Part shown: positions 28,591 through 53,636 of the stretch, in pieces
How the letters are laid out: the number at the start of each line of letters is the position of its first letter
Numbering within the stretch: the stretch's first letter is position 1
Origin: Minisyncoccota bacterium
Lineage (GTDB): Bacteria; Patescibacteriota; Minisyncoccia; Phycocordibacterales; XYD1-FULL-46-19
Length of the DNA stretch: 64,000 bases
Direction: 5' to 3'
Assembly (NCBI GenBank): GCA_041665625.1
Contig: JBAYIK010000003.1
Coordinates: 2,967 to 66,966, forward strand
Notes under the pieces: model-generated
What the model saw: the letters and a program-made list of their open reading frames with translations, nothing else
Told to the model about the DNA's origin: nothing
Databases searched by the model: none
Made by a program: the position numbers and the translations under genes

Positions 28591-29025
28591 ATGCCCACAA
28601 TCAATCAATTAATTAGGAAGCCTCGCAAAATCGTTAAGCGCAAGTCTAACACGGTGGCTTTAGAGCGCGGTTTTAATACTATTAAGAACAAGCCAGTTTT
28701 CTATCCATCTCCCTTCAAACGAGGTGTCTGTTTGCAGGTTAAGACTACTACTCCTAAGAAGCCTAACTCCGCTTTGCGTAAGATTGCCCGTGTACGTTTG
28801 ACCAACGGTATGGAGGTCACGGCTTATATCCCAGGTGAGGGTCATAATTTGCAAGAGCACTCAGTGGTTATTATCCGTGGTGGTCGTGTGAAGGACTTGC
28901 CAGGTGTTCGTTACCACATTGTCCGCGGTCTCTTGGATACCGCTGGTGTTGAGAAGCGTCGCCAGGGCCGTTCTCTATATGGTAACAAGCGTCCTAAGGC
29001 TGGTGCCGATGCTAAAAAGAAATAA
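28591..29025 (+). CDS. rpsL: 30S ribosomal protein S12
   Basis: [13 protein letters not shown]...[10 protein letters not shown]...[18 protein letters not shown]. Confidence 0.9.
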
Positions 29026-29030
29026 TTATT

Positions 29031-29510
29031 ATGCGACGACCTACTAAAAGATTAGTTAAATTAGAGCCAGATCATCAATATCAATCTCTCAAGGTTGAGA
29101 AGCTTATTAACTATATTATGGAGCGTGGCAAGAAAAATGTTGCCCGAACCATTGTTTATGGTGCTTTTGATATCATCAAAGAGAAGACCAAGGAGGAGCC
29201 TATCGAAGTTTTTGAAACTGCTATTCGCAATGTCTCCCCACAGGTTGAAGTTCGCTCCCGCCGTGTTGGTGGTGCTAACTATCAGGTTCCTCACGAAGTC
29301 CGTCCTGAGCGCAAGCTCGCTTTAACTTATCGCTGGATTATTGAGGCTGCCAAGGGAAAGAAAGGGAAGCCAATGGCTCAAAAATTGGCCGACGAACTTA
29401 TTGGTGCTTATAAAAATGAAGGCGAAGCTATTAAGAAGCGTGAGAACGTTCATCGTATGGCTGAAGCCAACAGAGCTTTTGCTCACTTTGCCCTCGCTCG
29501 TAAGAAATAA
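29031..29510 (+). CDS. rpsG: 30S ribosomal protein S7
   Basis: EVRSRRVGGANYQVPHEVRPERKLALTYRWII...REN VHRMAEANRAFAHF matches S7. Confidence 0.9.
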   Translation: MRRPTKRLVKLEPDHQYQSLKVEKLINYIMERGKKNVARTIVYGAFDIIKEKTKEEPIEVFETAIRNVSPQVEVRSRRVGGANYQVPHEVRPERKLALTYRWIIEAAKGKKGKPMAQKLADELIGAYKNEGEAIKKRENVHRMAEANRAFAHFALARKK

Positions 29511-29523
29511 AATTTAATAATTA

Positions 29524-29572
29524 ATTAGGGTGTTCGAAGTTGGACTTCGGGCACACTTGAAGTCCAACTTCT
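29524..29572. repeat. Perfect 13-bp inverted repeat (hairpin) in the rpsG-fusA intergenic spacer
   Basis: cGAAGTTGGACTTCgggcacacttGAAGTCCAACTTCt. Confidence 0.5.
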
Positions 29573-29584
29573 AACAACAAATCT

Positions 29585-31726
29585 ATGAGAGATTATCCTT
29601 TAGACAAAGTTCGCAATTTCGGTATTATCGCCCACATCGACGCTGGTAAGACTACTGTCTCCGAGCGTATTCTTTATTATACTGGTGTCTCTCATAAGAT
29701 TGGTGAGGTTCACGAAGGTGAGGCTGTCATGGACTGGATGGATCAAGAGCGTGAGCGTGGTATTACCATTTGTTCAGCCGCTACCACCGCTTTCTGGACC
29801 CCAACTTACGACATTTTAAATCCTGATCGCAAGCATCGTTTGAATATCATCGACACCCCGGGGCACATTGATTTCACCGTTGAGGTTAAGCGTTCTCTCC
29901 GTGTTCTTGATGGCGCCGTGGTTATCTTCGACGGTGTCGCTGGTGTGGAGCCTCAGTCTGAGACCAACTGGCGTTATGCTGATGAGGCCAAGGTTCCTCG
30001 TATGTGTTTTGTTAATAAGCTCGACCGTATGGGCGCCTCTTATGACAAATCTTTCCAGACTATTCTTGACCGTCTTTCGAAGAAAGCAATTCGAATTCAA
30101 ATTCCTATTGGTGTTGATTCTGAACACGAAGGGGTTATCGATTTGATCAAAATGAAGGGTTATCTCTTCGAAGGGGATAAGGGTAAAGAAATTAAAGAAA
30201 TTGAGATTCCTGAGAAATATCTTGAAGATGCCAAAACTCTCCGAGCTGAACTCGTGGAGCGTATTGTTGAGAACGACGATACTTTGATGACCGACTTTCT
30301 TGAAGGTAAGGAAATTTCTATCCCTGATCTCAAGCGTGTAATGCGCAAGGCTGTTATCGCCAACGAAATTTTCCCTGTTATGTGTGGTTCGGCTCTTAAG
30401 AATAAGGGTGTGCAACTCATGCTCGATGCCGTTGTCGATTATTTGCCAAGTCCATTAGACATGCCCGCTATCCACGGCTTCCATCCTGTTACTGGCGAAG
30501 AAGAATTCCGCAAGACTTCGGATGATGAGCATTTCTCGGCTCTCGCTTTCAAAATGCAGGCGGATCCCTTTGTTGGTCAGTTGACCTTCTTCCGTGTCTA
30601 CTCTGGTGTTCTCAAGTCTGGGTCCTATGTCTACAATTCCATCAATGATGAACGTGAGCGGGTTGGACGTATTGTTCGTCTCCACGCTAACCATCGTGAA
30701 GAAGTGCCGGAGGTCTATGCGGGAGAAATTGCCGCTATCGTGGGCCTTAAGAGCACCAAGACTGGCCACACTCTTTGTGATGAGAATTTCCCTATTGTTC
30801 TTGAAGGTATCAAGATTCCTGAACCGGTCGTGGAAATGAGAATTGAGCCTAAGACTAAGGTTGACCAAGAGAAAATGGGTATTGCTCTTAAGAAACTCTC
30901 TGATGAAGATCCAACCTTCCGCATCAAATCTGATCCTGAGACCATGGAGACCATTATCGCCGGTATGGGCGAATTACACTTAGACGTTCTCGTTGAACGT
31001 ATGAAGCGTGAGTTCGGCGTGGAGGCTAATATTGGTAAACCACAGGTCGCCTACAAAGAAACTATCACTGCCCCGGCTGAAGCTGAGAGTAAGTATGTGA
31101 AGCAGTCTGGTGGTAAGGGTCAATATGGCCACGTACGTATCCGCATTAAGCCTCTAGAGAAGATTGTCGATCCAGAAGCAAAGGTGGCCAAGAACATTAA
31201 GCGTGAAGCCAATTTCGAATTCATTAATAATATTAAAGGTGGTGCCATCCCGGGTGAGTATATCCCAGCCGTGGAGAAGGGTATCCGTGAAGGTCTCTCC
31301 CGTGGTATCTCCGCTGGCTTCGAAGTTGTCGATGTCTCAGTTGAACTCTATGATGGTTCCTACCACGAAGTGGACTCCTCCGAAATGGCCTTCAAGATGG
31401 CCGGCTCGATGGCTGTACAAGAAGCTGCCCGTCGCGCTAAGCCAGTGCTCCTTGAGCCAATTATGAAAGTTGAAGTTGTTGTCCCTGAGAAGTTCATGGG
31501 TGATATTACTGGCCACCTCTCCTCTAAGCGCGGACAGATTGAAGCGATGGAAGAAAGAGGGGATCTTAAGGTCATCAATGCTAAGGTACCTTTGTCTGAA
31601 ATGTTCGGCTATGTCACCACTCTTCGCTCCATGACCGAAGGCCGTGGCAACTACACCATGGAATTCCTCGAGTATGCCATTATCCCAACAAGTGTTGCTC
31701 AGGCTATCATCGAAGCGAGAAAATAG
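29585..31726 (+). CDS. fusA: Elongation factor G
   Basis: G-domain motifs [21 protein letters not shown]; ~710 aa; conserved C-terminal domains. Confidence 0.95.
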
Positions 31727-31737: not shown

Positions 31738-32535
31738 ATGAAGAAATTTTTAAGTTTATGTCAGGAAATTAAGACCTCTGATGTTATAAAAGGCGGTCGG
31801 GTTTCTTTTGTTTTCTATTTTTTCCTCACCCATATACTTAACCTGGTTTGGCATTTTAATCAGAAATTGACCAGAATTATTGCGGCTCGGCTTGCTACCC
31901 CTAAGAGATTTCTGATTAAGAATAAAACCGGTTATTTTTGGGTTTCCCCCTTTAATGATTCAATGACGGTCTCGGCTGATTATTATGATTCTCAGCTGGT
32001 TAATTGGTTAGAAAAACCACCTAAGAAGAGGATTTTTGTTGATATCGGGGCTCATATTGGACGGTATTCAATTTTAGCTGGTAGGAAATACTACAAAGTT
32101 GTTGCTTTTGAACCAAATCCAGCTATTTTTTCAGTTTTAGAAAATAATATTAAAGCTAACAATTTAGAGGAAAAAGTTAATCTACATAAAGTTGCCTTAA
32201 GTGATAAACCCGGGACAGTCCTTTTTACCGTTGACGATATTTACTCGGTAGCAAGTGGCATTTCCGATGATGGGACGGGGTTACCTGTTTCTTGTGCCCT
32301 TGGCGATGAGATTCTTAAAGGGGTTAACTTTGAAGAGATTGATTTCATCAAAATAGATGTTGAGGGCCATGATCGGGAAGTTTTAAATGGGCTAAATGAG
32401 GTTCTAACCAAGATGCCTATGGGGAGCTTCATTATGATCGAGTTTGATAATGAGACCGCAAAAACCCTAAAGAAGTACTCCTTTGAATTTGTAAAATCTG
32501 ATGGTGGACTTAACCACTTGTTCGAAAAGAGATAG
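31738..32535 (+). CDS. FkbM-family SAM-dependent methyltransferase
   Basis: FVDIGAHIGRYSILAGRKYYKVVAFEPNPAIFSVLENN...VALSDKPGTV fits the Methyltransf_21/FkbM motif. Confidence 0.6.
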   Translation: MKKFLSLCQEIKTSDVIKGGRVSFVFYFFLTHILNLVWHFNQKLTRIIAARLATPKRFLIKNKTGYFWVSPFNDSMTVSADYYDSQLVNWLEKPPKKRIFVDIGAHIGRYSILAGRKYYKVVAFEPNPAIFSVLENNIKANNLEEKVNLHKVALSDKPGTVLFTVDDIYSVASGISDDGTGLPVSCALGDEILKGVNFEEIDFIKIDVEGHDREVLNGLNEVLTKMPMGSFIMIEFDNETAKTLKKYSFEFVKSDGGLNHLFEKR

Positions 32536-32642: not shown

Positions 32643-33065
32643 ATGGAAGGAGCACCAACACGAGAGTCAAGACGAGAAGAAGATATGACCCCAATTGAAA
32701 GGGTTAGAAACGCTAGGAATATTTTAGAAGAAAAAAGAGAAAATTTAGGGAATGCTGTTGGGGAGGTTGGGAGATTGGAGTTTGTTATTCGCTATGCCGT
32801 AAAACATCCAGGAACTCCTATTTCGCAATATGTCGAAAAATATCTTGAGAAGATAGACAAATATATTGAAGATGAAGGCGAAAATGCTGATCAGAATGAT
32901 GTAGCAAAAATGGCTGACAATATGCTCAACGGTTTTAATGAGATGCTCCTGGAACAAGGAGATCTTAGCATCGCAGAAGACAACCGGTTGATGGGGAAGG
33001 GTGAAACTTTTACTCCGACACAGGCCCCTTCTGAAGAAGGGGGGTCCGGAGCCATGGCTGCTTAA
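32643..33065 (+). CDS. Hypothetical acidic protein (140 aa)
   Basis: ORF with a plausible RBS context, no recognisable domain, Glu/Asp-rich. Confidence 0.35.
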   Translation: MEGAPTRESRREEDMTPIERVRNARNILEEKRENLGNAVGEVGRLEFVIRYAVKHPGTPISQYVEKYLEKIDKYIEDEGENADQNDVAKMADNMLNGFNEMLLEQGDLSIAEDNRLMGKGETFTPTQAPSEEGGSGAMAA

Positions 33066-33092: not shown

Positions 33093-33132
33093 GAACCCCC
33101 CGGCGAGCGCTAGTGCTCGCCGGGGGGTTTGT
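33093..33132 (+). terminator. Rho-independent terminator
   Basis: CCCCCCGGCGAGC-gctagt-GCTCGCCGGGGGG followed by TTTGT. Confidence 0.6.
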
Positions 33133-33233
33133 GGCCTAGTTTGACTTATCTGAGGATTTTGCTAATATAAGTACTGCGTTTGTGCGCAGTCTTTTAATTT
33201 GTATTTATTATTAATCGTTAATTTTAATTAATT

Positions 33234-34439
33234 ATGGCAGCAGAAAAATTTGATCGTTCCAAGCCACACGTTAACGTCGGGACCATTGGCCACGTTGACC
33301 ACGGCAAGACCACCCTCACCGCCGCTATCTTGTACACTCTAAACATGGCCTCTGGCCAAGGTTATAGTGCTCGCGTAGAGAACGTCGATGGTATTGATAA
33401 TGCCCCTGAAGAGAAAGCGAGAGGAATCACTATTGCTCTTCACCACTCTGAGTACAGCACTCCTAAGCGTCACTATGCTCACATCGACGCTCCAGGTCAC
33501 GCTGACTATATTAAGAACATGATTACTGGTGCCGCCCAGATGGATGGCGCTGTTATCGTGGTTGCTGCGACTGATGGTATTATGCCTCAGACTCGCGAGC
33601 ACGTTCTTTTGGCTCGCCAGGTTGGTGTGCCTAAGATCATTGTTTTCATCAACAAGTGCGATATGGTTGATGATCCTGAACTCATTGACTTGGTTGAAGA
33701 GGAAGTTCGTGAACTTCTTACTAAACAAGAATTCGATGGCGCCAATGCCCCTGTTATCCGTGGCTCCGCTCTTAAGGCTCTTGCTTCCACCAGTCTTGAT
33801 GACGAGTGGTCCAAGGGTATCCTTGCTTTAGTTCAGGCTATGGATGACTATATTCCTGATCCTATCCGTGAAGTTGACAAGCCATTCTTGATGCCGATTG
33901 AAGATATCTTCTCAATTGAAGGTCGCGGGACTGTCGTTACTGGCCGTATCGAGCGCGGTGTTGTGAAGGTTGGTGAAGATGCCGAAATTGTCGGTCTCAC
34001 TCCTACTGTCAAAACTACCATTACCGGTATCGAAATGTTCAACAAGCAACTCGACGAGGGTATGGCTGGCGACAACGCTGGTATTCTCTTGCGCGGTCTT
34101 AAGAAGGACGATGTTACCCGTGGTCAGGTTTTGGCCAAGGTCGGCTCCGTTACTCCTCACACCGAATTCACCGCTGAAGTTTACATTTTGACCAAGGAGG
34201 AAGGTGGTCGCCACACTCCATTCTTCGCTGGTTACAAGCCACAATTCTACATTCGTACCACTGACGTGACTGGTGAGGTTATTCTCCCAGAGGATGTTAA
34301 AATGGTTATGCCTGGCGATACCATTAGTATCACTGTTAAGTTGATTTCTCCGGTCGCCTTGGAAGACAAGCAACGCTTTGCTATCCGCGAGGGTGGTAAG
34401 ACTGTTGGAGCCGGTGCTGTTAACAAAATTATTGCTTAA
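33234..34439 (+). CDS. tuf: Elongation factor Tu
   Basis: [26 protein letters not shown] motifs; ~400 aa. Confidence 0.95.
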
Positions 34440-34472
34440 GTTCGCTTAATCAATCAAGCACCTTACAAAATT

Positions 34473-34847
34473 ATGGAAAACGAAACAAAAACAACCAAAG
34501 CCAAGAAGCCCGCGAAGGCCAAGAAGGATGAGGTAAAAGAATTGGCCAAGTTGCGCATTCGTGTCTCAGCTTATGAGCACAAAGTGCTTGATGCTAGCGT
34601 GAAGCAGATTGTTGATACCGCGACTCGTTATGATGGTAAGATTGAGGGTCCTATCCCTCTTCCTACCGAGTTCAAGAAGTATACTGTTAACCGCAGTTCC
34701 TTCATCGACAAGAACTCCCGCGAGCAGTTCGAAATGCGTATCCATAAGCGCTTGATTGATATCTCTAACCCCTCTCCGAAGTTGATTGAGAGCCTTACAA
34801 ATCTCAACCTCCCATCCGGAGTCAACATCGACGTAAAGATGATGTAA
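34473..34847 (+). CDS. rpsJ: 30S ribosomal protein S10 (with a Lys-rich N-terminal extension)
   Basis: [23 protein letters not shown]...GPIPLPT...[12 protein letters not shown]. Confidence 0.85.
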
Positions 34848-34849
34848 AC

Positions 34850-34878
34850 AAAAAAGCCCCTCCGGGGGCTTTTTTGTT
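34850..34878 (+). terminator. Rho-independent terminator between rpsJ and rplC
   Basis: AAAAAAGCCCC-tccg-GGGGCTTTTTT. Confidence 0.6.
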
Positions 34879-34940
34879 GACATTTCTCCCTGATTTGTTA
34901 GTATAAATCAAAGCTCGTAGGGGCTATTATTTTTACTTTT

Positions 34941-35594
34941 ATGAAATTCATTCTCGGCAAAAAGGAATACATGACCCAGCTCTTTGATGAGTCTGGTAAG
35001 GTTGTCCCTGGGACGGTTGTTTCGGCTGGTCCTATGTATGTTCTTGAACTTAAAAAAGGTAAGCCCTCTACTACTAAATCCAAGACTGGCACCTACGATT
35101 CGATGGTTATCGGTTATGGCGAGCGCAACCTCAAGAATGTCAATAAGCCTCAGAAAGGTTTGATCAAGAAGGCTCTTGCTGAGAGAGAGAAGGGTTTCAC
35201 TATCATTCGTGAATTCAATAATAAGAAAAGTGCTTTGCCTGAAGTCGGAGTTGGCGGGGTCATCGATGCCTCAACTTTCGCTCAAGGTGATAAGGTTGTT
35301 GTTAGCTCCATCTCTAAGGGTAAGGGCTTCCAAGGTGTGGTCAAGCGTCACCACTTCGAAGGAGGACGTCGTTCCCATGGTCAGAAGCACTCCGAGCGTG
35401 AGCCAGGTTCTATTGGTGCCGGTGGTAAACAGCGTGTTATGCCTGGTATGCGTATGGCCGGCCGTATGGGTACTGATCGCATCACTTCTAAGAATTGTAT
35501 CGTTTCCCGTGTTGATGCCGACAAGAATTTGATTTTTATTAAGGGAGCCATTGCTGGTCGCAAGGGTACATTGGTGGAAATAGTTGTTAAATAG
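34941..35594 (+). CDS. rplC: 50S ribosomal protein L3
   Basis: MKFILGKKEYMTQLFDE parallels MIGLVGKKVGMTRIF. The GKGFQGVVKRH...GSIG region is conserved. Confidence 0.9.
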   Translation: MKFILGKKEYMTQLFDESGKVVPGTVVSAGPMYVLELKKGKPSTTKSKTGTYDSMVIGYGERNLKNVNKPQKGLIKKALAEREKGFTIIREFNNKKSALPEVGVGGVIDASTFAQGDKVVVSSISKGKGFQGVVKRHHFEGGRRSHGQKHSEREPGSIGAGGKQRVMPGMRMAGRMGTDRITSKNCIVSRVDADKNLIFIKGAIAGRKGTLVEIVVK

Positions 35595-35608
35595 ACTGAT
35601 AAATTATC

Positions 35609-36277
35609 ATGATTGAAGCAAAGGTTTATAATTTTGAAGGAGCTGAATCAGGGAAGGCAAGTTTGCCCGAGGCTATCTTTGGCGTGAAGTGGAACAATGA
35701 CTTGGTTTACCAGGTTGCTGTTGCTATGCAGGCCAATCTTCGTCGCGTGACCGCTGATACTAAGGACCGTTCCGATGTTCGCGGTGGTGGTAAGAAACCA
35801 TGGCGCCAGAAGGGTACTGGGCGTGCCCGTCACGGTTCCTCTCGTTCTCCAATCTGGAAGGGTGGTGGTATTACTCATGGCCCAGTTGCTGAGAAGGATT
35901 ATAGCCAGAAGATCAATAAGAAAATGAAGTCCAAGGCCTTCTTCATCGCTTTGTCTAAGAAGCTCGCTGATGGCGAAGTTGTCTTTGTCCAAGATCTACC
36001 TCTAACTGTGGCTAAGACCAAGCAGGCTCAAGCCTATTTGAATAATTTTGCTAAGGCTGGTTTCGAGAAAATCAACTACAAGAAGGGTAAGCGTGCCCTT
36101 ATCACTACCGCCAAGAAGGATGAGAAGACCTCTAAGAGCTTCAAGAATATTCCTAGCGCTACTGTTTCTGACTTGCGCGATATTAATCTTCTTGATTTAT
36201 TGAATTATAAATATATTGTCATTACCAACCCGGCTGATAGTTTGGTCGTTCTTAAGACCCGCGCTAAAGCAGAATAA
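35609..36277 (+). CDS. rplD: 50S ribosomal protein L4
   Basis: [20 protein letters not shown] motif. Confidence 0.9.
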
Positions 36278-36282
36278 ATACC

Positions 36283-36588
36283 ATGTCTAAAATCGGTAAA
36301 GAAAACAAAACCCAGATTGTCTTGAAGTCACCTCGCGTTACCGAGAAGTCGACAGATTTGTCTTTGCGCAAGAGTGGTCCGGCTTATGTCTTCGAAGTCG
36401 CGCAAGAAGCCACCAAACCTATGGTTGTTGCCGCCTTTGTTGCTAAATATAAGGTTAAGCCAGTGAAGGTCAATATTGTTAATTTGCCAGCCAAGAAGAC
36501 TTTGGTTCGCGGTAAGCGCGGTCATAAGAGTGCCATTAAGAAGGCGATCGTTTTTATTAAGGTTGGTGAAAAAATAGAAATTGTCTAA
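36283..36588 (+). CDS. rplW: 50S ribosomal protein L23
   Basis: Size, position and the YVFEV...VKVNIVN pattern. Confidence 0.8.
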   Translation: MSKIGKENKTQIVLKSPRVTEKSTDLSLRKSGPAYVFEVAQEATKPMVVAAFVAKYKVKPVKVNIVNLPAKKTLVRGKRGHKSAIKKAIVFIKVGEKIEIV

Positions 36589-36589
36589 T

Positions 36590-37429
36590 ATGAAAAAATA
36601 CGCCCCAACAACCCCATCCCGTCGCAACATGACCACGATTAACTATCGTGAGTATTTGACCGTCTCCGAGCCTCACAAGCCCCTTACCAAGGGTGTGAAG
36701 AGAGATGTCGGCCGCAATGGCGATGGTCGCATTACTGTTCGTCACAAGGGAGGGGGACATAAGCGCCTCTATCGTGATATTGATTTCAAATACACCAAAG
36801 TTGGTATTCCTGCCAAGATTGAGACTGTAGAGTATGATCCTAACCGCTCTGGCTTTATCGCCCTCGTTTGTTATAAGGATGGGGCTCGTGCCTATCACTT
36901 GCTACCCAAGGAGCTTAAGGTTGGCGACGTCATCTTGAATGATGCTAGCGCTGACGTGAAGACTGGTAATCGTTTGCCTCTGTCTAAAATTCCTGTCGGT
37001 ACCTTTATTTATAATATCGAGACCAAGCCGGGGAGTGGGGCTAAGTTTGTCCGTTCTGCTGGTTCTTATGCCGAGGTTGTCTCTCACGATGCCGGTTATA
37101 CCGCTATCAAGATGCCTTCAACCGAAATTCACAAATTACTTGATACTTGTTCCGCTTCGGTTGGTGCCGTTTCTAATGATGAGCACAAGCTGGTGAAATA
37201 TGGTAAGGCTGGTCGCTCTCGTTGGATGGGTATCCGCCCAACCGTTCGTGGTACCGCTATGAACCCTGTCGACCATCCATACGGTGGAGGTGAAGGTGTC
37301 CAGGGTCGCGGAACTAAGCGTCCTAAGACTATGTGGGGTAAGGTTACCGGTGGCCGTAAGACTCGTCATCCTAAGAAATATTCTAACCACCTCGTTGTTT
37401 CTCGCCGTAAGGTTGGGAAGCGTAAATAG
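36590..37429 (+). CDS. rplB: 50S ribosomal protein L2
   Basis: MKKYAPTTPSRR...GGGHKRLYR...NPVDHPYGGGEG. The ATG at 36590 sits just after the rplW stop; the ORF-track TTG start at 36581 overlaps it. Confidence 0.9.
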   Translation: MKKYAPTTPSRRNMTTINYREYLTVSEPHKPLTKGVKRDVGRNGDGRITVRHKGGGHKRLYRDIDFKYTKVGIPAKIETVEYDPNRSGFIALVCYKDGARAYHLLPKELKVGDVILNDASADVKTGNRLPLSKIPVGTFIYNIETKPGSGAKFVRSAGSYAEVVSHDAGYTAIKMPSTEIHKLLDTCSASVGAVSNDEHKLVKYGKAGRSRWMGIRPTVRGTAMNPVDHPYGGGEGVQGRGTKRPKTMWGKVTGGRKTRHPKKYSNHLVVSRRKVGKRK

Positions 37430-37487: not shown

Positions 37488-37617
37488 TCCACTCTTAGTT
37501 TTTCTCTAAACCATATCTATGGTGCTATAATAAATTTAGGCGTAAACGCTTGCTTTGTTTTATTATAAATTTATTATTAATCAATGTCTCGCTTAGCGGG
37601 ATTTAAAAACTAATTTA

Positions 37618-39267: not shown

Positions 39268-39277
39268 GTTAATTTAG

Positions 39278-39322
39278 AAAACCGCCCAGGCCTCGGGAAA
39301 CCAGAGGTCTGGGCGGTTTTTT
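39278..39322 (+). terminator. Rho-independent terminator
   Basis: AAACCGCCCAGG...CCTGGGCGGTTTTTT. Confidence 0.55.
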
Positions 39323-39796: not shown

Positions 39797-39798
39797 TC

Positions 39799-40140: not shown

Positions 40141-40141
40141 T

Positions 40142-42054: not shown

Positions 42055-42066
42055 ACAAATACGAGT

Positions 42067-42375: not shown

Positions 42376-42381
42376 AATACT

Positions 42382-42951: not shown

Positions 42952-42992
42952 AAAACAACACAGAAAACCCCTCTTCAGAGGGTTTTTCTTAT
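42952..42992 (+). terminator. Rho-independent terminator, third copy of the repeated element
   Basis: AAAACAACACAGAAAACCCCTCTTCAGAGGGTTTTTCTTA carries a variant loop (TTCA). Confidence 0.6.
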
Positions 42993-43035
42993 GCTATAAT
43001 TATAAATAGCAAATTAGTAGCTTAATTATAAAATA

Positions 43036-44619: not shown

Positions 44620-44644
44620 GTTTAGCTAAAATTAAGAAGGAACA

Positions 44645-44675
44645 GAAAAAGACGAGGCTGAAGCTCGTCTTTTTC
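44645..44675 (+). terminator. Rho-independent terminator
   Basis: GACGAG-gctgaag-CTCGTC followed by TTTTTCTGTT. Confidence 0.5.
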
Positions 44676-44690
44676 TGTTATAATAAAAGT

Positions 44691-45194
44691 ATGAAAATTG
44701 CGATTATTTCCGATGCCCATGACAATATGGCTAACCTTGAGAAATTCTTGGAGGTGACCAAGAGGGAGGGGATAGAAGGAATAATTCATTGTGGGGATGT
44801 GACAACACCCGAAACTCTTGACTGGCTGGCGGAGAATTTTGCTGGCCCGATTAAGCTGGCTGACGGCAATATGGAGATCAGGCGAGAGGAATTTGGCCAG
44901 GTAGTTGAGAGGCATAAGAATCTTGAGGTTTTTCCCGAAATTGGGGTTTGGGAGCTAGAAATTAGAGGGGCAGGAACAAAAATTGCTTTTACTCATCGAC
45001 CTAATAAAAATGAGGAATTGGCTCAAACTAAGGCTTATTCCTTCGTTTTTTATGGCCATACTCACAAACCTTGGATTAGCCAGATTGGGTCAGTTTTGGT
45101 GGCAAATCCTGGTACTTTGGGGGGCGTCTTTACGGCTCCAACCTATGCCACTTTAGATACTGATATTGGTCAACTGGCCCTACACCGGCTCTAG
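44691..45194 (+). CDS. Calcineurin-like metallophosphoesterase (YfcE/MJ0936-like)
   Basis: MKIAIISDAHDN...HCGDV...GHTH motifs. Confidence 0.7.
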   Translation: MKIAIISDAHDNMANLEKFLEVTKREGIEGIIHCGDVTTPETLDWLAENFAGPIKLADGNMEIRREEFGQVVERHKNLEVFPEIGVWELEIRGAGTKIAFTHRPNKNEELAQTKAYSFVFYGHTHKPWISQIGSVLVANPGTLGGVFTAPTYATLDTDIGQLALHRL

Positions 45195-45271
45195 GCCTTA
45201 GTTTAGTTGACATTTAGGCCTCTTTCTTGTTAGGATAGAGGGTGGCTCGTAGGAGCCCACTTTGATTTTAT

Positions 45272-45457
45272 ATGGCTAAAACATCAGTTATCGCCCGGTC
45301 TAAGAAGACCCCAAAATTCAGCTCCCGCCTCGTGCGGCGCTGTTTCCGTTGTGGTCGTAAGCACGCTTTTATGCGCGATTTTGGCCTATGTCGTATCTGT
45401 TTTAGAGAACTTGCTAACGAGGGTAAAATCCCCGGAGTCCGTAAGTCATCTTGGTAA
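45272..45457 (+). CDS. rpsN: 30S ribosomal protein S14, type Z (zinc-binding)
   Basis: 61 aa with C.RCGR...C.ICF. Confidence 0.85.
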
Positions 45458-45471
45458 TTCTATATAATATT

Positions 45472-45864
45472 ATGTCAACAGATTCTATTTCAGACTTTTT
45501 AATACAAATCAAGAATGGCGGGCGAGTAAAGCGCGAGAGTATTACTGTTCCTGCTTCTAATCTTAAAGAAGCTATCGCGGAGACTCTGGTTCGCACTGGT
45601 TGGCTTAAGAGTGTCGTCAAGCGCGGGAAGAAGGTCAAGAAGTATCTTACTTGTGAATTAGCCTACAAGGCTGGCGAACCTAAGATCGTTGAAGTTAAGC
45701 GTATCTCTAAACCATCTCGTCGTGTTTATGTTGGGACTGACGAGCTTAACCTTGTTCGCCAAGGTTTTGGTCTTGCTATTCTTTCAACACCAAAAGGAAT
45801 TTTAACCAATTTTGAAGCTAAGAAGGCTAAGGTCGGTGGGGAGTTAATGTTTGAAATTCACTAA
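45472..45864 (+). CDS. rpsH: 30S ribosomal protein S8
   Basis: MSTDSISDFLIQIKNG...GLAILSTPKGI. The ATG at 45472 is preferred over the ORF-track TTG at 45451. Confidence 0.9.
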   Translation: MSTDSISDFLIQIKNGGRVKRESITVPASNLKEAIAETLVRTGWLKSVVKRGKKVKKYLTCELAYKAGEPKIVEVKRISKPSRRVYVGTDELNLVRQGFGLAILSTPKGILTNFEAKKAKVGGELMFEIH

Positions 45865-45865
45865 T

Positions 45866-46402
45866 ATGTCACGTATTGCTAAAAGACCAATATCCCTCCC
45901 AACTGGCGTTACCGTCACTGTTCTTGGTGACGAATTCAAAGTTAAGGGTCCACAAGGCGAACTCTCTAAGAAATTTAAGAGTGACGTCACTATTGTCGCC
46001 GATGATAAAGAAGTCCAGGTTACTCCTAGCCACAAATCTATCTCTGCTAACGCTTTATCTGGTACCTATGCTTCCCATCTTAAGAACATGATCGAGGGGG
46101 TGACTAAGGGTTTTGAGAAGAAATTGATTGTTGAAGGTGTCGGTTATAAATATGTTGTTAACGGTAATGAAGTTCGTTTAGATATTGGGTTTTCTCATCC
46201 GGTGATGGTCCCTATTCCTGATGGTATTAAAGTTGTTACCGAGAAGAGCAACATGACCATTACTGGTATTGATAAAGAATTGGTTGGTGAATTTGCTGCC
46301 AAGATCCGTTCGCTTAAGAAGGTTGAGCCTTATAAGGGTAAGGGTATCCGTTACATTGACGAAGTTGTCCGTCGTAAGCAAGGGAAGAAGGCTAGCGCCT
46401 AA
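45866..46402 (+). CDS. rplF: 50S ribosomal protein L6
   Basis: [17 protein letters not shown]...GVGYK. The ATG at 45866 follows directly on the rpsH stop. Confidence 0.9.
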
Positions 46403-46410
46403 TTAAATTT

Positions 46411-46788
46411 ATGAAAATAATTCGTTTCAAAACTAAAGAAGAAAAAAGAGGTCGTCGCGCTACCCGCGTTCGGGCTAAGGTGTCGGGCACTATGGAGCGT
46501 CCTCGTCTTTCTGTTTTTCGTTCTAACAAACATATCTTTGCTCAATTGATTGATGATAATACTGGTAAGACCTTGGCTTCAGCTTCAGATAAAGAAATTA
46601 AGTTAGCCAAAAAAGAGAAGGGTGCTCAGACCAAAGTTTTGGCGGGCATGGCTGTTGGGAAATTATTAGCTGAGAAAGCCAAGGCTGGCAAACTATCTAA
46701 GGCGGTCTTTGATCGTGCTGGTTATCGTTTTACCGGTCGAGTTAAGGCTGTCGCTGAAGGGGCCCGTGAAGGGGGACTAGAATTTTAA
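46411..46788 (+). CDS. rplR: 50S ribosomal protein L18
   Basis: [18 protein letters not shown]...FDRAGYRF. Confidence 0.85.
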
Positions 46789-46797
46789 TAAAATATT

Positions 46798-47436
46798 ATG
46801 GCTGAACAACCAACAAACAATCAAGTCGTGAGAAAAGTTTTTGCTTCTCCCGGAACCGCTCGTCCAAGTTTTGGTCGTGGTGGTGCTATTGGTGGGGCAA
46901 ATCGCCCTGGTGGCAATCGTCCTGGAGGCAATCGCCCCGGCGGTAATCGTGGTGGCCGTTTTGGTGCCGATCGCCCTAAGCCAGAATTTGATCAGAAGAC
47001 TATCAATGTTCGTCGTGTGGCGCGTGTTGTTTCTGGTGGCCGTCGTTTCAGTTTCTCGGTGGCTCTTATTGCCGGAGACAAGAATGGCCGCGTAGGTGTT
47101 GGTGTTGGTAAGGCTGGAGACACCGCTTTGGCTGTCGAGAAGGCTCTTAATAAGGCCAAGAAAGCGATGATTCGTGTTAACATGACCGACAAGAAATCTA
47201 TTCCTCATGAAGTCTCGGCTAAGTACAAGTCAGCTCGTGTGGATCTTCGCCCGGCTAAGGGTCGTGGTCTAGTTGCTGGTAGTGCTGTTCGTGTTGTCCT
47301 CGCTTTGGCTGGTCTCCATGATGTTAACGCCAAGATTGTTTCGCGCAGTAAGGATAAATTAAATATTGCTCGGGCTGCGATTCTTGCCCTTTCTAGTTTG
47401 AAAACTAAGGCCCCTAAGACGACTGAAGCCAAATAG
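46798..47436 (+). CDS. rpsE: 30S ribosomal protein S5 with a Gly/Arg/Pro-rich repetitive N-terminal extension
   Basis: Core RVARVVSGGRRFSFSVALIAGDKNGRVGVGVGKA. N-terminal GGNRPGGNRPGGNRPGGNRGGRFG is encoded by a 15-bp tandem repeat at ~46899-46960. Confidence 0.85.
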   Translation: MAEQPTNNQVVRKVFASPGTARPSFGRGGAIGGANRPGGNRPGGNRPGGNRGGRFGADRPKPEFDQKTINVRRVARVVSGGRRFSFSVALIAGDKNGRVGVGVGKAGDTALAVEKALNKAKKAMIRVNMTDKKSIPHEVSAKYKSARVDLRPAKGRGLVAGSAVRVVLALAGLHDVNAKIVSRSKDKLNIARAAILALSSLKTKAPKTTEAK

Positions 47437-47455
47437 TCCCTTGTAGATAAATATT

Positions 47456-47905
47456 ATGCAATTACATAACCTAAAAAAGAATAAGACAAACAGAGCTGCC
47501 CGTCAGATTGGTCGCGGTGGTAAGCGCGGTACAACTTCCGGTCGGGGAACCAAGGGTCAGAACGCTCGTGCTGGTAACAAGCGCCGCCCAGAAATGCGTG
47601 ACATCATTAAGAAATTACCTAAGTTACGTGGTTACCGTTTTAAGGGTTATGGTATTAAACCAATGGTGGTTAATCTTTTCCTTTTGAGTAAGTCATATGA
47701 AGCCGGGGAAACTGTTAACCCAACAACCTTATTGGCCAAGAAGCTGATCAATAAGAAAAGTGGTAGATTGCCTGAGGTTAAAGTCTTGGCGACCGGCACT
47801 CTTGTTAAGGCCTTGAAATTTGAGGACTGCTTAGTCTCCGAAGCCGCTAAAGTAAAAATTGAACAAGCTGGTGGTTCCGTTATCTCTGTTCCGGCCGAAA
47901 AATAA
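47456..47905 (+). CDS. rplO: 50S ribosomal protein L15
   Basis: MQLHNLKKNK..R..RQIGRGGKRGTTSGRGTKGQNARAG. It follows rpsE directly, so there is no rpmD (L30). Confidence 0.85.
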   Translation: MQLHNLKKNKTNRAARQIGRGGKRGTTSGRGTKGQNARAGNKRRPEMRDIIKKLPKLRGYRFKGYGIKPMVVNLFLLSKSYEAGETVNPTTLLAKKLINKKSGRLPEVKVLATGTLVKALKFEDCLVSEAAKVKIEQAGGSVISVPAEK

Positions 47906-47908
47906 AAT

Positions 47909-49183
47909 ATGATCGATACATTTCTAAACAAACTAAGACTCGTTTTTGAAGATCGCGGTCTGCGTAATCGGATTTTGTTTGTTGTTGCCGCGCTTTTTAT
48001 GTTCCGCTTAGGCGCCTCTATCCCTATCCCGGGCGTTAATGTTTTAGCTCTTGACCGTTTTCTCTCTGACAACCAATTCTTTGGGATGTTGAACATCTTT
48101 TCTGGTGGTGGTCTTTCTAACCTATCCATTATGATGTTAGGTGTTGGTCCTTATATTACCGCTTCGATTATTTTCCAGCTCCTTACCCTAGTTTTCCCTT
48201 CTCTAAAGCAGATGTACCATGAGGATGGCGCCGCTGGTCGTCGTAAGATTGCCCAGTATTCCCGTTATCTCACTGTTCCTCTTTGTGTCGTCCAGGGTTT
48301 GTCCTTGCTTGTTATGTTGGAGAAACAAGGCGTTTTAATGAATCTTACCTATTTCGATCGCATCCTTAACATTTTAGTTGTCACGGCTGGGTCAATGCTC
48401 TTGATGTGGATTGGTGAATTGATTACTGAGTACGGTATTGGTAACGGTGTTTCCCTCTTGATTTTTGCCGGTATCGTCTCAAGTCTTCCTTCTGTCCTTT
48501 CTCAGCTCTGGTTGACTGGTGATATGTCCAATATCCCAATGTACCTTGGCTTCGCTGTCTTGGCGGTGATCATCCTGGCCGCCATTGTCTTCATCACTGA
48601 AGCCGAACGGCCTATTCCTATTACCTATGCCAAACGAGTGCGGGGGATGAAGGTCTATGGTGGCACTTCTACTTATCTCCCTATTCGCGTTAATAATGCT
48701 GGTGTCATGCCAATTATCTTTGCCATTTCCATTATTCTCTTTCCTCAGATGATTGCTAATTATCTGGCCACTTCTAGCGTCGACTCGGTCAGAGTTGTCG
48801 CCGAAGCCGTCCTGGCTTTTATTAATAATGCTTGGGCCTATGGCATTTTCTACTTCCTCTTGGTAGTGGTCTTCACTTATTTCTATTCTGCCGTTACCTT
48901 TGACCCAGTTGCTATCTCTGAGAACTTGCAGAAGAATGGAGCCTTCATCCCCGGTGTTCGTCCTGGTCATTCCACCGCCCTTTATATTGGTAATATTTTG
49001 ACCCGTTTGACCCTAATTGGGTCTCTCTTCCTTGGTATTGTTGCTCTTTTGCCAATTCTTATCCAGAACATGACGGGGATTGCCTCGCTGGCTATTGGCG
49101 GAACGAGTCTCTTGATCGTCGTCTCAGTAGCGATTGAATTCGTCAAACAAATCAACGCTCAGATCTCAATGCGGGAGTATTAG
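47909..49183 (+). CDS. secY: Preprotein translocase subunit SecY
   Basis: Ten TM segments, with N-terminal LRNRILFVVAALFMFRLGASIPIPGV. Confidence 0.9.
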   Translation: MIDTFLNKLRLVFEDRGLRNRILFVVAALFMFRLGASIPIPGVNVLALDRFLSDNQFFGMLNIFSGGGLSNLSIMMLGVGPYITASIIFQLLTLVFPSLKQMYHEDGAAGRRKIAQYSRYLTVPLCVVQGLSLLVMLEKQGVLMNLTYFDRILNILVVTAGSMLLMWIGELITEYGIGNGVSLLIFAGIVSSLPSVLSQLWLTGDMSNIPMYLGFAVLAVIILAAIVFITEAERPIPITYAKRVRGMKVYGGTSTYLPIRVNNAGVMPIIFAISIILFPQMIANYLATSSVDSVRVVAEAVLAFINNAWAYGIFYFLLVVVFTYFYSAVTFDPVAISENLQKNGAFIPGVRPGHSTALYIGNILTRLTLIGSLFLGIVALLPILIQNMTGIASLAIGGTSLLIVVSVAIEFVKQINAQISMREY

Positions 49184-49211
49184 ACGCTCAGGTTGTTGCC
49201 TATAAAACCTA

Positions 49212-49240
49212 GAAAAATCCCCGGATGGGGTTTTTCTTTT
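49212..49240 (+). terminator. Rho-independent terminator after secY
   Basis: AAAAATCCCC-ggat-GGGGTTTTTCTTTT. Confidence 0.6.
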
Positions 49241-52300: not shown

Positions 52301-52976
52301 CGTCACCTTCAATACCTGGGAGACCACTGGCAGCCAGAACAAGAGTTGGACGGCTTCTTCCTCTATGGCTGGCGACACCACTTATACCATCGGTGACCTT
52401 GTTCCTAATACTCCCTACACTTTCAAACTAGACGGCACCGCCAACACTGCCATCACTAGCTCAGCCTGCTCTGGCTCAACCTGTACCTCAGACTCTGCTG
52501 GCCAAATCGTCTTCACCTATACGGGTGGCTATTCCACTCACACCTTCGAATTAGTTAATGCTACCGTTCCGGCCACGGAGACAGCCCCTGTTCATCGTTC
52601 CTCTGGTGGAACTGTCGCCAATCAGATCTCCAACTTAATTTCAATGGGAAATCTTGAATTAGCCAATGAACTTAGTGCCAAATACAATTTAGGAACTTCT
52701 TCTGCCGCCAAAGCTTCTTCAACCCTTCGTTATTCTTTTACTCGTAATCTAAAAACTGGCTCAACAGGCTCTGATGTTAAATTGTTGCAACAATTCTTAA
52801 ATACCCACGGCTTTATTCTGGCCAAGTCTGGAGCTGGGTCACCAGGGAGAGAGACGAGTTATTTTGGTCAAGCTACAAGAAACGCCTTAATCAGATTCCA
52901 AAAGGCTAACAAAATTACTCCCGCAGTCGGCTACTTTGGGCCGGTGACGAGGGGGGTGGTGGAAAGAATTAAATAG
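49302..52976 (+). CDS. Giant secreted parallel-beta-helix (pectate-lyase-fold-like) protein with a C-terminal PG_binding_1-like domain; sits between secY and adk
   Basis: Signal peptide MSKKIKIYFLSVIFLVSAFFLTLPLASSA. Long runs of ~22-25-aa beta-helix-type repeats rich in N/S/T/G/V (...SNNVSSDAKGHAFVILGSRDLSFTSNTV...). C-terminus LKTGSTGSDVKLLQQFLNTHGFIL...SYFGQATRNALIRFQKANKI fits the PG_binding_1 consensus. Confidence 0.55.
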   Translation: MSKKIKIYFLSVIFLVSAFFLTLPLASSAATFCVRHDGTATFTRSVSNITSDVAHGGYVKVQTSGAVAVPAGDYITLRGVGTTGQDINGTHQVIFNDSGTPNRLLTIDVPYVSGTGVTGGYILPSGSTTDSAVGLTNDAGHCLGLVASFNNAHASTPFLPGDIIYFGGALSTTALYTITDSGSAGNPITFTSFPGAMPAIDNTAGVILNITSGVSYININNFIGTTTSAGSQAVKFNGNNSYVTISSSTLAVGGGNTGSIIQSNGTDVHDITISDIVGNGGAVSFATGSPQSIYLNNVNITGGTSMAFDGVSSTTLINVSHASTTGFGLQILNGLGKLTIDNYVGGSSTDKGVYILNSTFDSGSQLINSSVSFSSSSAYYLSNVEGLSLSNNVSSDAKGHAFVILGSRDLSFTSNTVNVPSNFPAGSYGFYVVSSSDNINFSSNTVNNAIGAGASYSVDGSSNISFNGDSVGLTSTTTSFSISSSTGVSLRNISVSNGGSMAFSSSSALTIDNVSSVDSLGYGMTIVNSVGTTSINNLNISSSTLAGLYVATSTFSGSTNKVSNSTISTPGTYSYFLDNVSGLSLEDNSSVNPVSHAFIISSSTNISLTRNTATGGARGITSTVGYYVISTSSNITFNSNISNSARSSGFVVKDGSNNITFNSDLAENSVDLTGFSFSESSNLITCNSCIARNNGDDGFSTTDFAHDITFNKCLAYGNGSSTVDSSGDGFTSHKENYNILINNSLAYDNWDSGFGMSGSSTSVNSSGRIYNSVAATTRGGSRQMAGMLFSTQGLNSTTNEGWTVKNNIGYKNNNNTGLGYTPHEIATFNSTALSSGRVALDYNVYKPLSDDTFSMVGVAPSPFVSKTWAEHSVYEPHSVNASTSQIFVSASPSTTTDFRLADLSPAIDAGDSSIVTSTTTDYLGNPLYGAPDAGAFEYQPTLTITTTDPQYTGNIRIYADGKYRYTSATSSATSANFLVTPVSGSYTSYGASTTRPEYLNVTFNTWETTGSQNKSWTASSSMAGDTTYTIGDLVPNTPYTFKLDGTANTAITSSACSGSTCTSDSAGQIVFTYTGGYSTHTFELVNATVPATETAPVHRSSGGTVANQISNLISMGNLELANELSAKYNLGTSSAAKASSTLRYSFTRNLKTGSTGSDVKLLQQFLNTHGFILAKSGAGSPGRETSYFGQATRNALIRFQKANKITPAVGYFGPVTRGVVERIK

Positions 52977-53006
52977 TTTTGCTTTTAGGGTAACTTTGGG
53001 CTAAAA

Positions 53007-53636
53007 TTGAAGGATATGGAAAATAATCAAGAAGGCTCTGGTCTCAAGACCTTTATTTTTATTGGTCGTTCGGGCTGTGGCAAGGGGACGCAAGTTGAAC
53101 AGTTGGCCGAGCACTTAAAAGGGAAGGGGATCATCAATAGTGACCATGCTTGGTTGCGGGTGGAAACTGGTGCCCAGTTTAGGAAATTTGCCGAGAGAGA
53201 TAATTATTCAGCTTGCAAATTGAAGGAGTCCATGGAGAGTGGTAATCGTTTACCTGATTGTTTTGCTATTTGGACTTGGTGTAATTACTTTATTGAAAAT
53301 TATACTGGCGAGGAACACATCTTCTGTGATGGTTGCCCTCGTTCTTTGCTCGAAGCACAATCTTTAGATTTTCTTTTTAGATTTTATAATCGTAAAGAGT
53401 TGTCTGTTGTTTATCTTGATATCTCTAAAGAGGAGGCGACAAGGCGAATGCTCGCTCGGGGGAGGGCCGATGATCAGCTTGAAGATATCGAAAAACGATT
53501 AGAGTGGTTTGACAAGGACGTTGTCCCGGCGATTGAATATTACCGTAACAATTCTAAATATAAGTTTGTCGAGGTTGATGGAGAGCAGACAATTGAGAAA
53601 ATTCACGAAGACCTGATTTCAATGCTGGATGTTTAG
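53007..53636 (+). CDS. adk: Adenylate kinase (divergent)
   Basis: P-loop IFIGRSGCGKGTQ. CDGCPRSLLEAQSL aligns with LLDGFPRT. RMLARGRADDQLEDIEKRLEWF fits the LID/C-terminal region. Confidence 0.7.
   Translation: MKDMENNQEGSGLKTFIFIGRSGCGKGTQVEQLAEHLKGKGIINSDHAWLRVETGAQFRKFAERDNYSACKLKESMESGNRLPDCFAIWTWCNYFIENYTGEEHIFCDGCPRSLLEAQSLDFLFRFYNRKELSVVYLDISKEEATRRMLARGRADDQLEDIEKRLEWFDKDVVPAIEYYRNNSKYKFVEVDGEQTIEKIHEDLISMLDV

Follow-up and report, generated by a model that had tools for sequence, protein, structure and literature searches.

In Gammaproteobacteria and Bacilli, a few non-ribosomal genes were inserted between the operons of the ribosomal protein gene cluster and later lost (PMC8046335). 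Here, the str-S10-spc cluster of a Minisyncoccota bacterium was examined in a 64,000-nucleotide stretch of contig JBAYIK010000003.1 (below, "the window" is this whole stretch), in which genes for secreted proteins and other non-ribosomal genes interrupt the ribosomal genes. The locus resembles the documented cases (tusDCB, bfd-bfr, nrdHEF, and ilv-leu) in that small non-ribosomal sets lie between transcription units of an otherwise conserved cluster and have been lost from some descendants; for the documented cases, transposable elements and duplication were proposed as drivers. It differs in that (i) the open sites are noncanonical, with tuf/rpsJ and rpsQ/rplN closed and rpsJ/rplC, rplB/rpsS, and rplE/rpsN open; (ii) five sites are open at once; and (iii) the inserted genes (the cargo) come mostly from one diversifying family of secreted proteins that turns over between near relatives. 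We consider it probable, with some reserve, that the cluster is a series of separately promoted blocks and that the gaps between them act as permissive slots for fast-changing accessory genes, insulated from ribosomal transcription. This reading builds on direct observations: which genes are present, how the junctions vary while their flanks are conserved, and where hairpins and promoter-like motifs lie. No paper was found that describes this combination in a lineage of the candidate phyla radiation (CPR), and what is new compared with known insertions is the noncanonical partition, the five simultaneous slots, and the recurrent, rapidly exchanged secreted cargo.

Two other described systems are close to this one. 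In three Paceibacteria metagenome-assembled genomes (MAGs), the genes of unknown function with the highest expression include those for extracellular proteins with peptidoglycan-binding domains (PGBD), PKD domains, and Ig-like domains, for which a role in host attachment was proposed (Kuroda et al. 2024; PMC10936435). The three large secreted proteins of the window, termed A, B, and C, belong to the same bacterial class and share the domain vocabulary (signal peptide, peptidoglycan-binding, PKD, and Ig-like folds), a likeness drawn from domains alone. That paper, however, draws no link to ribosomal clusters, and in the one MAG examined (Yanofskyibacterium) the highly expressed PGBD gene lies outside the ribosomal cluster. 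Integration hot spots and genomic islets also have fixed flanks, content that varies among relatives, and mobility-linked cargo (here, an rve transposase and HicAB). In contrast to these, the slots described here are tiny, with one or two genes each and no integrase, tRNA, or att site, and they lie inside the most conserved gene cluster of bacteria, where promoter and terminator are kept and the gene body is exchanged.

Genes were identified by Pfam scans of all plus-strand open reading frames (ORFs) from 28.5 to 57 kb of the window. The order was rpsL-rpsG-fusA-(FkbM)-(acidic ORF)-tuf-rpsJ-rplCDWB-(A)-rpsS-rplV-rpsC-rplP-rpmC-rpsQ-rplNXE-(B)-(MPE)-rpsN-rpsH-rplFR-rpsE-rplO-secY-(C)-adk-map-ndk, where FkbM is an FkbM-type methyltransferase and MPE is a metallophosphoesterase, and this confirmed the order given in the original prediction, those two enzymes included. 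Every gene identified fits the canonical str-S10-spc order, rpmD excepted. The canonical str/S10 boundary, tuf/rpsJ, spans only 33 bp here (34440 to 34472), and there is no break at the canonical S10/spc boundary, where rpsQ and rplN are 6 bp apart (41677 to 41682); the breaks fall instead after rpsJ, rplB, and rplE. Nor are the S10 and spc genes tightly packed, as predicted terminator and promoter pairs and 0.1 to 3.8 kb of cargo are found at rpsJ/rplC, rplB/rpsS, rplE/rpsN, and secY/adk. By gene order and spacing, the ribosomal operons are re-partitioned relative to those of Escherichia coli and Bacillus.

Five variable junctions emerged from a comparison with relatives, whose loci (designated by L-numbers) were collected through a uS3 genome scan, a metagenome scan, and a homolog search with C. 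By the uS3 scan, the organism is a Candidatus Vogelbacteria/Paceibacterota bacterium, with L001 at 97% uS3 identity to the window, and the closest relative, L079, which came from the search with C, has ribosomal proteins 93 to 100% identical. Cluster genes were placed by tblastn in each locus, yielding a matrix of gaps for about 16 distinct lineages with uS3 identities of 59 to 97%. Only five adjacencies vary: fusA/tuf (157 to 1510 bp), rpsJ/rplC (5 to 1483 bp), rplB/rpsS (146 to 4164 bp), rplE/MPE (34 to 2355 bp), and secY/adk (29 to 3826 bp). The other 23 measure ∼220 bp or less, with a single exception (MPE/rpsN in L030, 447 bp). In actinobacterial and Anaerolineae loci retrieved by the same scan, the cluster was compact, as is usual, and its gaps fell at the canonical boundaries. 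The insertions had been called unusual; this stands to the extent that they fall at positions that in model bacteria lie within operons, but they are not specific to this genome, as the same five junctions are open across the Vogelbacteria-like clade, with cargo that differs between lineages.

Alignment of the window with L001 and L079 by blastn produced collinear blocks of 81 to 93% identity whose ends coincide with the junctions. At fusA/tuf, where the whole L001 gap is 157 bp and FkbM is missing, 62 bp including a terminator replace FkbM, the acidic ORF, and the hairpin of the window; identity resumes exactly at the tuf promoter, from which tuf and rpsJ are 93% identical. The rpsJ/rplC junction is empty in the window and holds 0.8 to 1.5 kb in L001, L005, L027, and L028. 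At rplB/rpsS, the cargo promoter, 5' untranslated region (5'UTR), signal-peptide region, and downstream terminator are kept, while the gene interior is unrelated or shuffled; A-like positional counterparts with shuffled interiors occur in L001, L006, L043, and L079. At rplE/MPE, identity to L001 and L079 runs through the spacer and 12 nucleotides (nt) into the ORF and then ends: B, a terminator of its own, and a promoter box for MPE are present in the window, and L001 and L079 have an unrelated membrane protein (254/322 aa) that abuts MPE. At secY/adk, a counterpart of C with 84% identity is present in L079, C is absent from L001 and L005, and L006 and L027 have a small ORF plus a PG_binding protein. 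From these breakpoints, turnover looks recent and cassette-like.

The ORFs in the open junctions of the relatives were then extracted and scanned. Cargo with a signal peptide, PG_binding_1, and PKD or Ig domains was found in L027 (twice), L006, L043, L003, L073, and L069, and secreted PKD/Ig cargo with no detectable PG-binding domain was found in L027, L004 (twice), L006, L007, and L001. Two GH9 proteins were present, a 1316-aa enzyme in L005 and a 1449-aa protein beside a PG_binding protein in L073, as were small membrane proteins. An N-terminal hydrophobic segment was seen in 27 of the 39 cargo ORFs of at least 100 aa, many of which start with MKKY(L/I)(F/L)G, and all large cargo genes are co-oriented with the ribosomal genes. 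Other cargo was of a different kind: two HicB/HicA-type toxin-antitoxin pairs in L007 (8512 to 9035 and 13155 to 13705, at rplB/rpsS and rplE/MPE), an NYN protein in L030, and minus-strand cytidylate-kinase-like genes in L009 and L044. An rve-family insertion sequence (IS) transposase occupies fusA/tuf in L039 (3549 to 4364), and the near-identical L008 is empty there, which is direct evidence of mobile DNA landing in the gaps.

The closest homologs of B sit at other junctions. The best matches (∼50% identity over the first 250 residues) lie at rplB/rpsS in L027 and L003 and at secY/adk in L006 and L027, and B's own junction is shared only by a 37%-identical relative, in L007. The more distant Parcubacteria GWC1_43_11b has the same signal-peptide/PG_binding/PKD family at rplE/rpsH. 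A strict association of the B family with ribosomal clusters was considered and rejected: among eight B homologs on long contigs, two lie inside the S10-spc cluster and six lie elsewhere, three of the latter near L10/L12, L21, and S15 genes and three unrelated to ribosomal genes.

To characterize the junctions, all long intergenic spacers of the cluster were read directly and then scanned and folded. Seven hairpins were found, after rpsJ, rplB, A, rplE, B, secY, and the acidic ORF, with fold z scores of −3.4 to −6.7 (Table 1); all are followed by a U-tract, which is weak only after the acidic ORF. In agreement with the original prediction, A and B are each bracketed by such hairpins (z of −4 to −6.7). 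The terminator after B overlaps the TGTTATAAT box of MPE (44676 to 44684). Near-consensus TTGACA promoters with a TG-extended −10 precede tuf, rplC (TTGACA-16-TAGTAT), rpsS (TTGACA-16-TATGAT), and rpsN (TTGACA-18-TAGGAT). Promoters of the TTGACA type occupy these four positions in nearly all relatives (by our estimate, chance would give one in ∼11% of 160-nt segments), and stable hairpins follow rpsJ and rplB in all relatives. An extended −10 box, TGnTATAAT, precedes A, B, and MPE, one each, and in the window this motif occurs almost exclusively just upstream of gene starts; the A and B boxes are both TGCTATAAT. A small conserved hairpin, GCTCGTAGGRGC or a variant of it, lies just 3' of the strong promoters of rplC, rpsN, and rpsS and could be a leader, a stabilizer, or an autoregulatory element.

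Read most economically, this anatomy suggests some ten transcription units, two of which, A and B, would be single genes insulated from their surroundings. Only FkbM and C-adk-map-ndk look cotranscribed with neighbors. FkbM starts 11 bp after fusA with no terminator between them, and the spacer from FkbM to the acidic ORF is unstructured; FkbM is thus probably appended to the str transcript. C has a terminator upstream only, its 30-bp spacer to adk is unstructured, and it probably heads a C-adk-map-ndk transcript. The terminator and promoter at most junctions, together with the TGCTATAAT box and terminator that A and B each possess, argue for permissive gaps and not for coupling.

We therefore propose the following working model for the locus as an arrangement of permissive gaps. 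The str-S10-spc cluster would be not one super-operon but six blocks (rpsL-fusA, tuf-rpsJ, rplC-rplB, rpsS-rplE, [MPE-]rpsN-secY, and adk-map-ndk), and the first four gaps between them, each marked by a terminator hairpin and a restart promoter, are not the canonical E. coli boundaries. Five gaps would tolerate insertion and serve as sites at which accessory genes arrive, disappear, and replace one another. Most often, the cargo is a secreted envelope protein with a signal peptide (often MKKY), a PG_binding_1 anchor, and PKD, Ig, or beta-helix modules. A and B, being self-contained, would be insulated from ribosomal transcription rather than driven by it, and FkbM, riding on the fusA transcript, and C, at the head of its own, would differ from them. 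In an exchange, the resident promoter, 5'UTR, first codons, and downstream terminator would stay while the gene body is replaced, with homology supplied by short shared sequences (the MKKY-coding start, spacer modules, and a mobile 165-nt element described below); IS elements land in the gaps as well.

TABLE 1 Features of the cluster and copies of the 165-nt element (coordinates refer to the window unless a relative's locus is named)
Feature	Coordinates	Strand	Evidence or remarks
Block 1: rpsL, rpsG, fusA	28591..31726	+	Pfam; collinear with L001 as far as the fusA stop codon
FkbM-type methyltransferase, cargo at fusA/tuf	31738..32535	+	PF05050, 59.4 bits
Acidic hypothetical protein, 140 aa, second cargo at fusA/tuf	32643..33065	+	Promoter-like site 32575-32604
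GC-rich hairpin, 16 bp, closing the fusA/tuf cargo	33093..33130	.	−36.4 kcal/mol, z −6.3; + strand U-tract weak
Block 2: tuf promoter-like site (33141-33168), tuf, rpsJ	33141..34847	+	Pfam, promoter scan
Predicted intrinsic terminator after rpsJ	34848..34877	+	−21.1 kcal/mol, z −5.0, U6
Block 3: promoter (34877-34904), leader hairpin, rplC, rplD, rplW, rplB	34877..37429	+	Pfam, promoter scan, blastn
Leader hairpin AGCTCGTAGGGGCT before rplC	34912-34925	+	
5' fragment of the 165-nt element, abutting the rplB stop codon	37428..37487	+	nhmmer E 5e-13; supplies hairpin 37458-37485
Terminator hairpin after rplB	37458-37485	+	−19.4 kcal/mol; part of repeat-element fragment
Cargo A: TGCTATAAT (37523-37531), 549-aa protein (37618-39267)	37523..39267	+	Pfam, promoter motif
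Strong predicted intrinsic terminator after A	39275..39322	+	−38.4 kcal/mol, z −6.1; conserved in L001
Block 4: promoter (39344-39371), rpsS, rplV, rpsC, rplP, rpmC, rpsQ, rplN, rplX, rplE	39344..42930	+	Pfam, promoter scan
Leader hairpin (GCTCGTAGGRGC or variant) before rpsS	39378-39391	+	
Second 5' fragment of the 165-nt element, after rplE	42952..42995	+	Supplies hairpin 42962-42989
Terminator hairpin after rplE	42962-42989	+	Part of second repeat-element fragment
Cargo B: TGCTATAAT (42992-43000), 527-aa protein (43036-44619)	42992..44619	+	Pfam, model, promoter motif
Predicted intrinsic terminator after B	44641..44679	+	−23.7 kcal/mol, z −6.7
MPE, YfcE/MJ0936-type metallophosphoesterase, upstream of rpsN	44691..45194	+	PF12850 Metallophos_2, 112 bits
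Block 5: promoter (45207-45236), leader hairpin, rpsN, rpsH, rplF, rplR, rpsE, rplO, secY	45207..49183	+	Pfam, promoter scan
Leader hairpin GGCTCGTAGGAGCC before rpsN	45244-45257	+	
Predicted intrinsic terminator after secY	49211..49237	+	−14.7 kcal/mol, z −3.4, long U-tract
Cargo C, 1224 aa	49302..52976	+	Signal peptide, right-handed beta-helix repeats, C-terminal PG_binding_1
Block 6: adk, map, ndk	53007..55102	+	Pfam
165-nt element, full copy, between stop of ORF 16569-17984 and tpiA	17985..18150	+	
165-nt element, full copy, after rpsJ	L001 3477-3653		
165-nt element, full copy, after rplE (L002/L026)	L026 4240-4419		
165-nt element, full copy, after secY	L027 17478-17645		
165-nt element, diverged copy at the orthologous pre-tpiA site	L077 9043-9197		

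The three secreted inserts were examined individually. As predicted originally, each has a PG_binding_1 (PF01471) domain, with scores of 37.1 (A), 29.7 (B), and 37.8 (C) bits compared to a gathering threshold of 23, and each begins with a signal-peptide-like hydrophobic N terminus. In A, the signal peptide and PG_binding_1 are followed by three ∼95-aa beta-sandwich repeats and a Kre9/Ig-like domain; in B, the signal peptide is followed by a helix, PG_binding_1, a PKD domain, and additional beta-sandwich domains. The claim that A and B are paralogs with IPT/TIG-like repeats was borne out for the signal peptide and PG-binding domain, which align over the first ∼105 residues (39% identity, E 4e-13), but the rest is unalignable and the TIG label found no support. 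The best TIG/IPT (PF01833) match, the last repeat of B, reached 14.7 bits (E 0.032) against a cutoff of 20.9, and the A repeats had no match; the repeats are supported instead as PKD/Ig/CARDB-like beta-sandwiches. An AlphaFold model of B is confident over residues ∼55 to 240 (helix, PG-binding domain, and PKD-like sandwich), with a predicted local distance difference test score (pLDDT) above 90 over residues ∼55 to 130, and in a fold search with this model the best PDB matches were a PKD domain and CARDB domains. A PDB sequence search with A and C gave no match at E 0.01 or below. Peptidoglycan binding by A, B, and C is predicted from the PG_binding_1 domain, and the combination of this domain with a signal peptide and PKD/Ig or beta-helix modules indicates wall-associated surface proteins. 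By analogy, the cargo would comprise wall-anchored adhesins or glycan-acting proteins for host or surface contact, and the beta-helix of C suggests a glycan-binding or glycan-cleaving head.

A foreign origin of A, B, and C was rejected on composition, as their GC content (42 to 45%) is like that of their neighbors. No other PG_binding proteins were found among the large ORFs elsewhere in the window. The occurrence of three such proteins in a region covering 41% of the window is not statistically striking from the window alone; the window is too small for a meaningful enrichment test, and the weight of the finding comes from the comparative data.

The remaining cargo of the window differs in age. 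The FkbM score exceeds the PF05050 gathering threshold of 22.7 bits, and FkbM is the only insert with deviating composition (37% GC compared to ∼45% for neighbors); its GC content and its absence from L001 make it look like a recent acquisition. The acidic 140-aa ORF matched no Pfam family. MPE matches PF12850 over positions 1 to 152 of its 154 residues and has a solved homolog (PDB 2ahd/1s3l, E 4e-16). It precedes rpsN in every sampled relative of at least 74% uS3 identity whose locus reaches the junction, and it is absent at 59 to 61%; MPE is thus an old, fixed insert.

The hairpins after rplB and rplE are nearly identical, and both proved to be 5' fragments of a repeat element of ∼165 nt. 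The junction at which the element is found differs between close relatives, and each copy begins directly after the stop codon of the gene before it, flanked by sequences such as TTAG, AAAG, and GTAG. In the RNAalifold prediction, the element has two hairpins, one of them the terminator, in addition to a long closing stem; the outer stem has ∼20 pairs. Compensatory changes occur at five pairs of the structure among only four sequences. Like terminator-bearing repeats of the REP type or miniature inverted-repeat transposable elements (MITEs), the element has long terminal complementarity, an internal terminator hairpin, and copies at different loci in close relatives, and two hallmarks of a MITE, terminal inverted repeats and copies at nonorthologous sites in close relatives, are present. 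No clear target-site duplication was seen at the copies, and no partner transposase was found in the examined loci. The element differs from such repeats in that the pre-tpiA copy is kept in a relative at 78% uS3 identity, with compensatory stem changes and no Rfam match. A 386-aa minus-strand cargo protein at rpsJ/rplC in L027 was considered as the transposase and set aside, as it had no Pfam hit and no homolog in the other loci examined. A permissive Rfam search around the element gave only a chance IS009 hit (E 0.19), and at gathering thresholds the whole window returned the transfer-messenger RNA (tmRNA) only. We take the element to be one of two things, a MITE-like repeat or a mobile structured RNA; given the conserved pre-tpiA copy and the compensatory stem changes, it may have a function as a structured RNA and not be selfish. 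It may both terminate transcription and offer homology for rearrangements.

The original prediction suggested that expression of the surface genes is coupled to the strongly transcribed translation genes. On this account, surface genes would be kept in the cluster for high, growth-linked expression through read-through or coregulation with the ribosomal genes. Several observations fit this idea. The same protein family occupies three junctions across lineages and the rplE junction of the Parcubacterium, the large cargo genes all point with the ribosomal genes, FkbM follows fusA by 11 bp and no terminator separates C from adk, and extracellular PGBD/PKD/Ig proteins are among the top-expressed genes of unknown function in the three Paceibacteria MAGs (PMC10936435). 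However, A, B, and C are each immediately preceded by a strong predicted terminator, A and B have promoter boxes of their own, and the ribosomal blocks have restart promoters, so that the anatomy favors insulation. Moreover, in several relatives the junctions are empty or hold unrelated cargo (an IS, NYN, toxin-antitoxin pairs, and minus-strand genes), six of the eight sampled family members are located outside the S10-spc cluster, and in the Yanofskyibacterium MAG (PMC10936435) rplB directly neighbors rpsS and rplE directly neighbors rpsN, with the highly expressed PGBD gene at another place. We regard expression coupling as unlikely on balance.

An ancient, vertically inherited arrangement that had simply gone unnoticed is a still less probable account of the inserts as a whole. 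MPE, the junction positions, and the restart promoters are common to the clade, A-like genes recur at rplB/rpsS in four relatives, and C is shared with L079; yet FkbM, the acidic ORF, and C are absent from L001 despite 97% uS3 identity, an unrelated membrane protein replaces B in L001 and L079, and each junction has many different cargo states among relatives. By these comparisons, an ancient arrangement is refuted for FkbM and the acidic ORF, B, and C and holds only for MPE and the junction positions. The original prediction had also allowed that close relatives might already carry all of the insertions: L079 does have an A-like gene, a C-like gene, and MPE, but at the site of B it has a different gene. 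Chimeric assembly at the insert boundaries, named at the outset as a possible refutation, is scarcely credible. Short similar repeats (the 165-nt element fragments) at two boundaries could in principle mislead an assembler, but rplE-B-MPE-rpsH with an identical B is present in three independent assemblies (ENA, 83 kb; JGI, 8 kb; Logan, 5.9 kb), the A-like-rpsS and secY-C-adk joins are found again in L079, which comes from another sample, other relatives carry cargo at the same junctions, and GC content and GC skew are even across the region, where the FkbM gene alone stands out.

Some points weigh against permissive, insulated gaps, the reading that we prefer. The promoters and terminators were predicted from consensus motifs or folding, and if termination is leaky, the cargo would still be coupled to ribosomal transcription. 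One protein family at three junctions and at the Parcubacterium rplE junction could reflect selection for location. C has no convincing promoter of its own, and the recombination mechanism is inferred from breakpoints only. Finally, the background control has a single comparator genome. In this control, a PGK anchor gave access to the part of the L005 genome that precedes the cluster (L077); a second PGK anchor locus (L078) had no synteny with the window. The upstream non-ribosomal region of the window showed good synteny with L077, with about 2 of 16 adjacencies differing (isochorismatase and NAD synthase present in the window only and an extra ORF between comEC and an MBL-fold gene), compared to 4 of 27 comparable adjacencies in the ribosomal region against L005, where fusA/tuf was not covered. 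In this one comparison, turnover in the cluster does not stand out from that in the rest of the genome, and the junctions thus behave as ordinary gaps between operons; they are conspicuous because their flanks never move. The isochorismatase and NAD synthase genes (23148 to 24697) lie between recJ and rnhA in the window.

A further, speculative extension is that the cluster spacers of Paceibacterota form a dedicated diversification platform, in which a family of surface proteins for host attachment, with an MKKY signal peptide, a PG-binding anchor, and variable PKD, Ig, or beta-helix heads, would be shuffled between a few fixed, strongly promoted slots, with conserved 5' modules and the mobile, terminator-bearing 165-nt element serving as portable homology for cassette exchange. 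We consider this improbable. If true, the platform would serve surface variation much as an integron or shufflon does, inside the most conserved locus of the genome.

Several features of the flanking and ribosomal genes were also recorded. The absence of rpmD, and of infA, rpmJ, rpsM, rpsK, rpsD, rpoA, and rplQ after map, was upheld: rpsE and rplO are 19 bp apart, with no L30 gene in its usual place, and tblastn with L30, IF1, L36, S13, S11, S4, RpoA, and L17 gave no match within the 64-kb window. L30 loss is a recognized CPR trait (bioRxiv 10.1101/2022.01.07.475337) and is not a feature of this locus. Downstream of map are ndk, a DUF2238-like ORF, a beta-CASP nuclease, and a SLOG protein, and the map-ndk link is also present in L009, L028, L030, L037, and L079. 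The ndk gene (54515 to 55102) encodes 195 aa, and its NDK domain match is split into two stretches, which suggests an insertion or extension within the enzyme. The rpsS ORF (39386 to 39796) opens at a TTG (39386; 136 aa), but the S19 domain and the gene calls of relatives favor the ATG at 39452 (114 aa), and the first 22 codons are probably 5'UTR. N-terminal extensions precede the Pfam domain in uS12 (28591 to 29025; domain from residue 35), uS10 (34473 to 34847; from residue 28), and uS5 (46798 to 47436, 212 aa; from residue 64). Farther upstream, positions 1251 to 16567 contain a type IV pilus-like block (PilB, PilC, and an N_methyl pilin-like protein) and very large ORFs, of which those of 801 and 1066 aa had no Pfam match and those of 1143 and 634 aa had Ig-like matches only. 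In L079, an 886-aa PG_binding protein (19795 to 22455) whose C terminus is 56% identical to that of C lies beside infC, and the counterpart site in the window (59531 to 60390) has smpB and the tmRNA. By this alignment, the infC-adjacent site is another variable site, with a C paralog outside the cluster.

The ribosomal cluster is a standard yardstick for phylogeny, binning, and completeness, for which compactness is commonly taken for granted. Its partition at noncanonical points in this CPR clade, and the fast-changing surface-protein genes that it holds, bear on how contigs of this kind should be read: insertions in the cluster are not a sign of a chimera here, and they can readily be followed by their conserved flanks. 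Unless a targeted diversification system is what the slots turn out to be, the practical gain is modest. The boundaries of ribosomal operons are not fixed across bacteria, and the fixed flanks of these junctions provide a natural frame for studying the turnover of proteins that episymbionts probably use in host contact.

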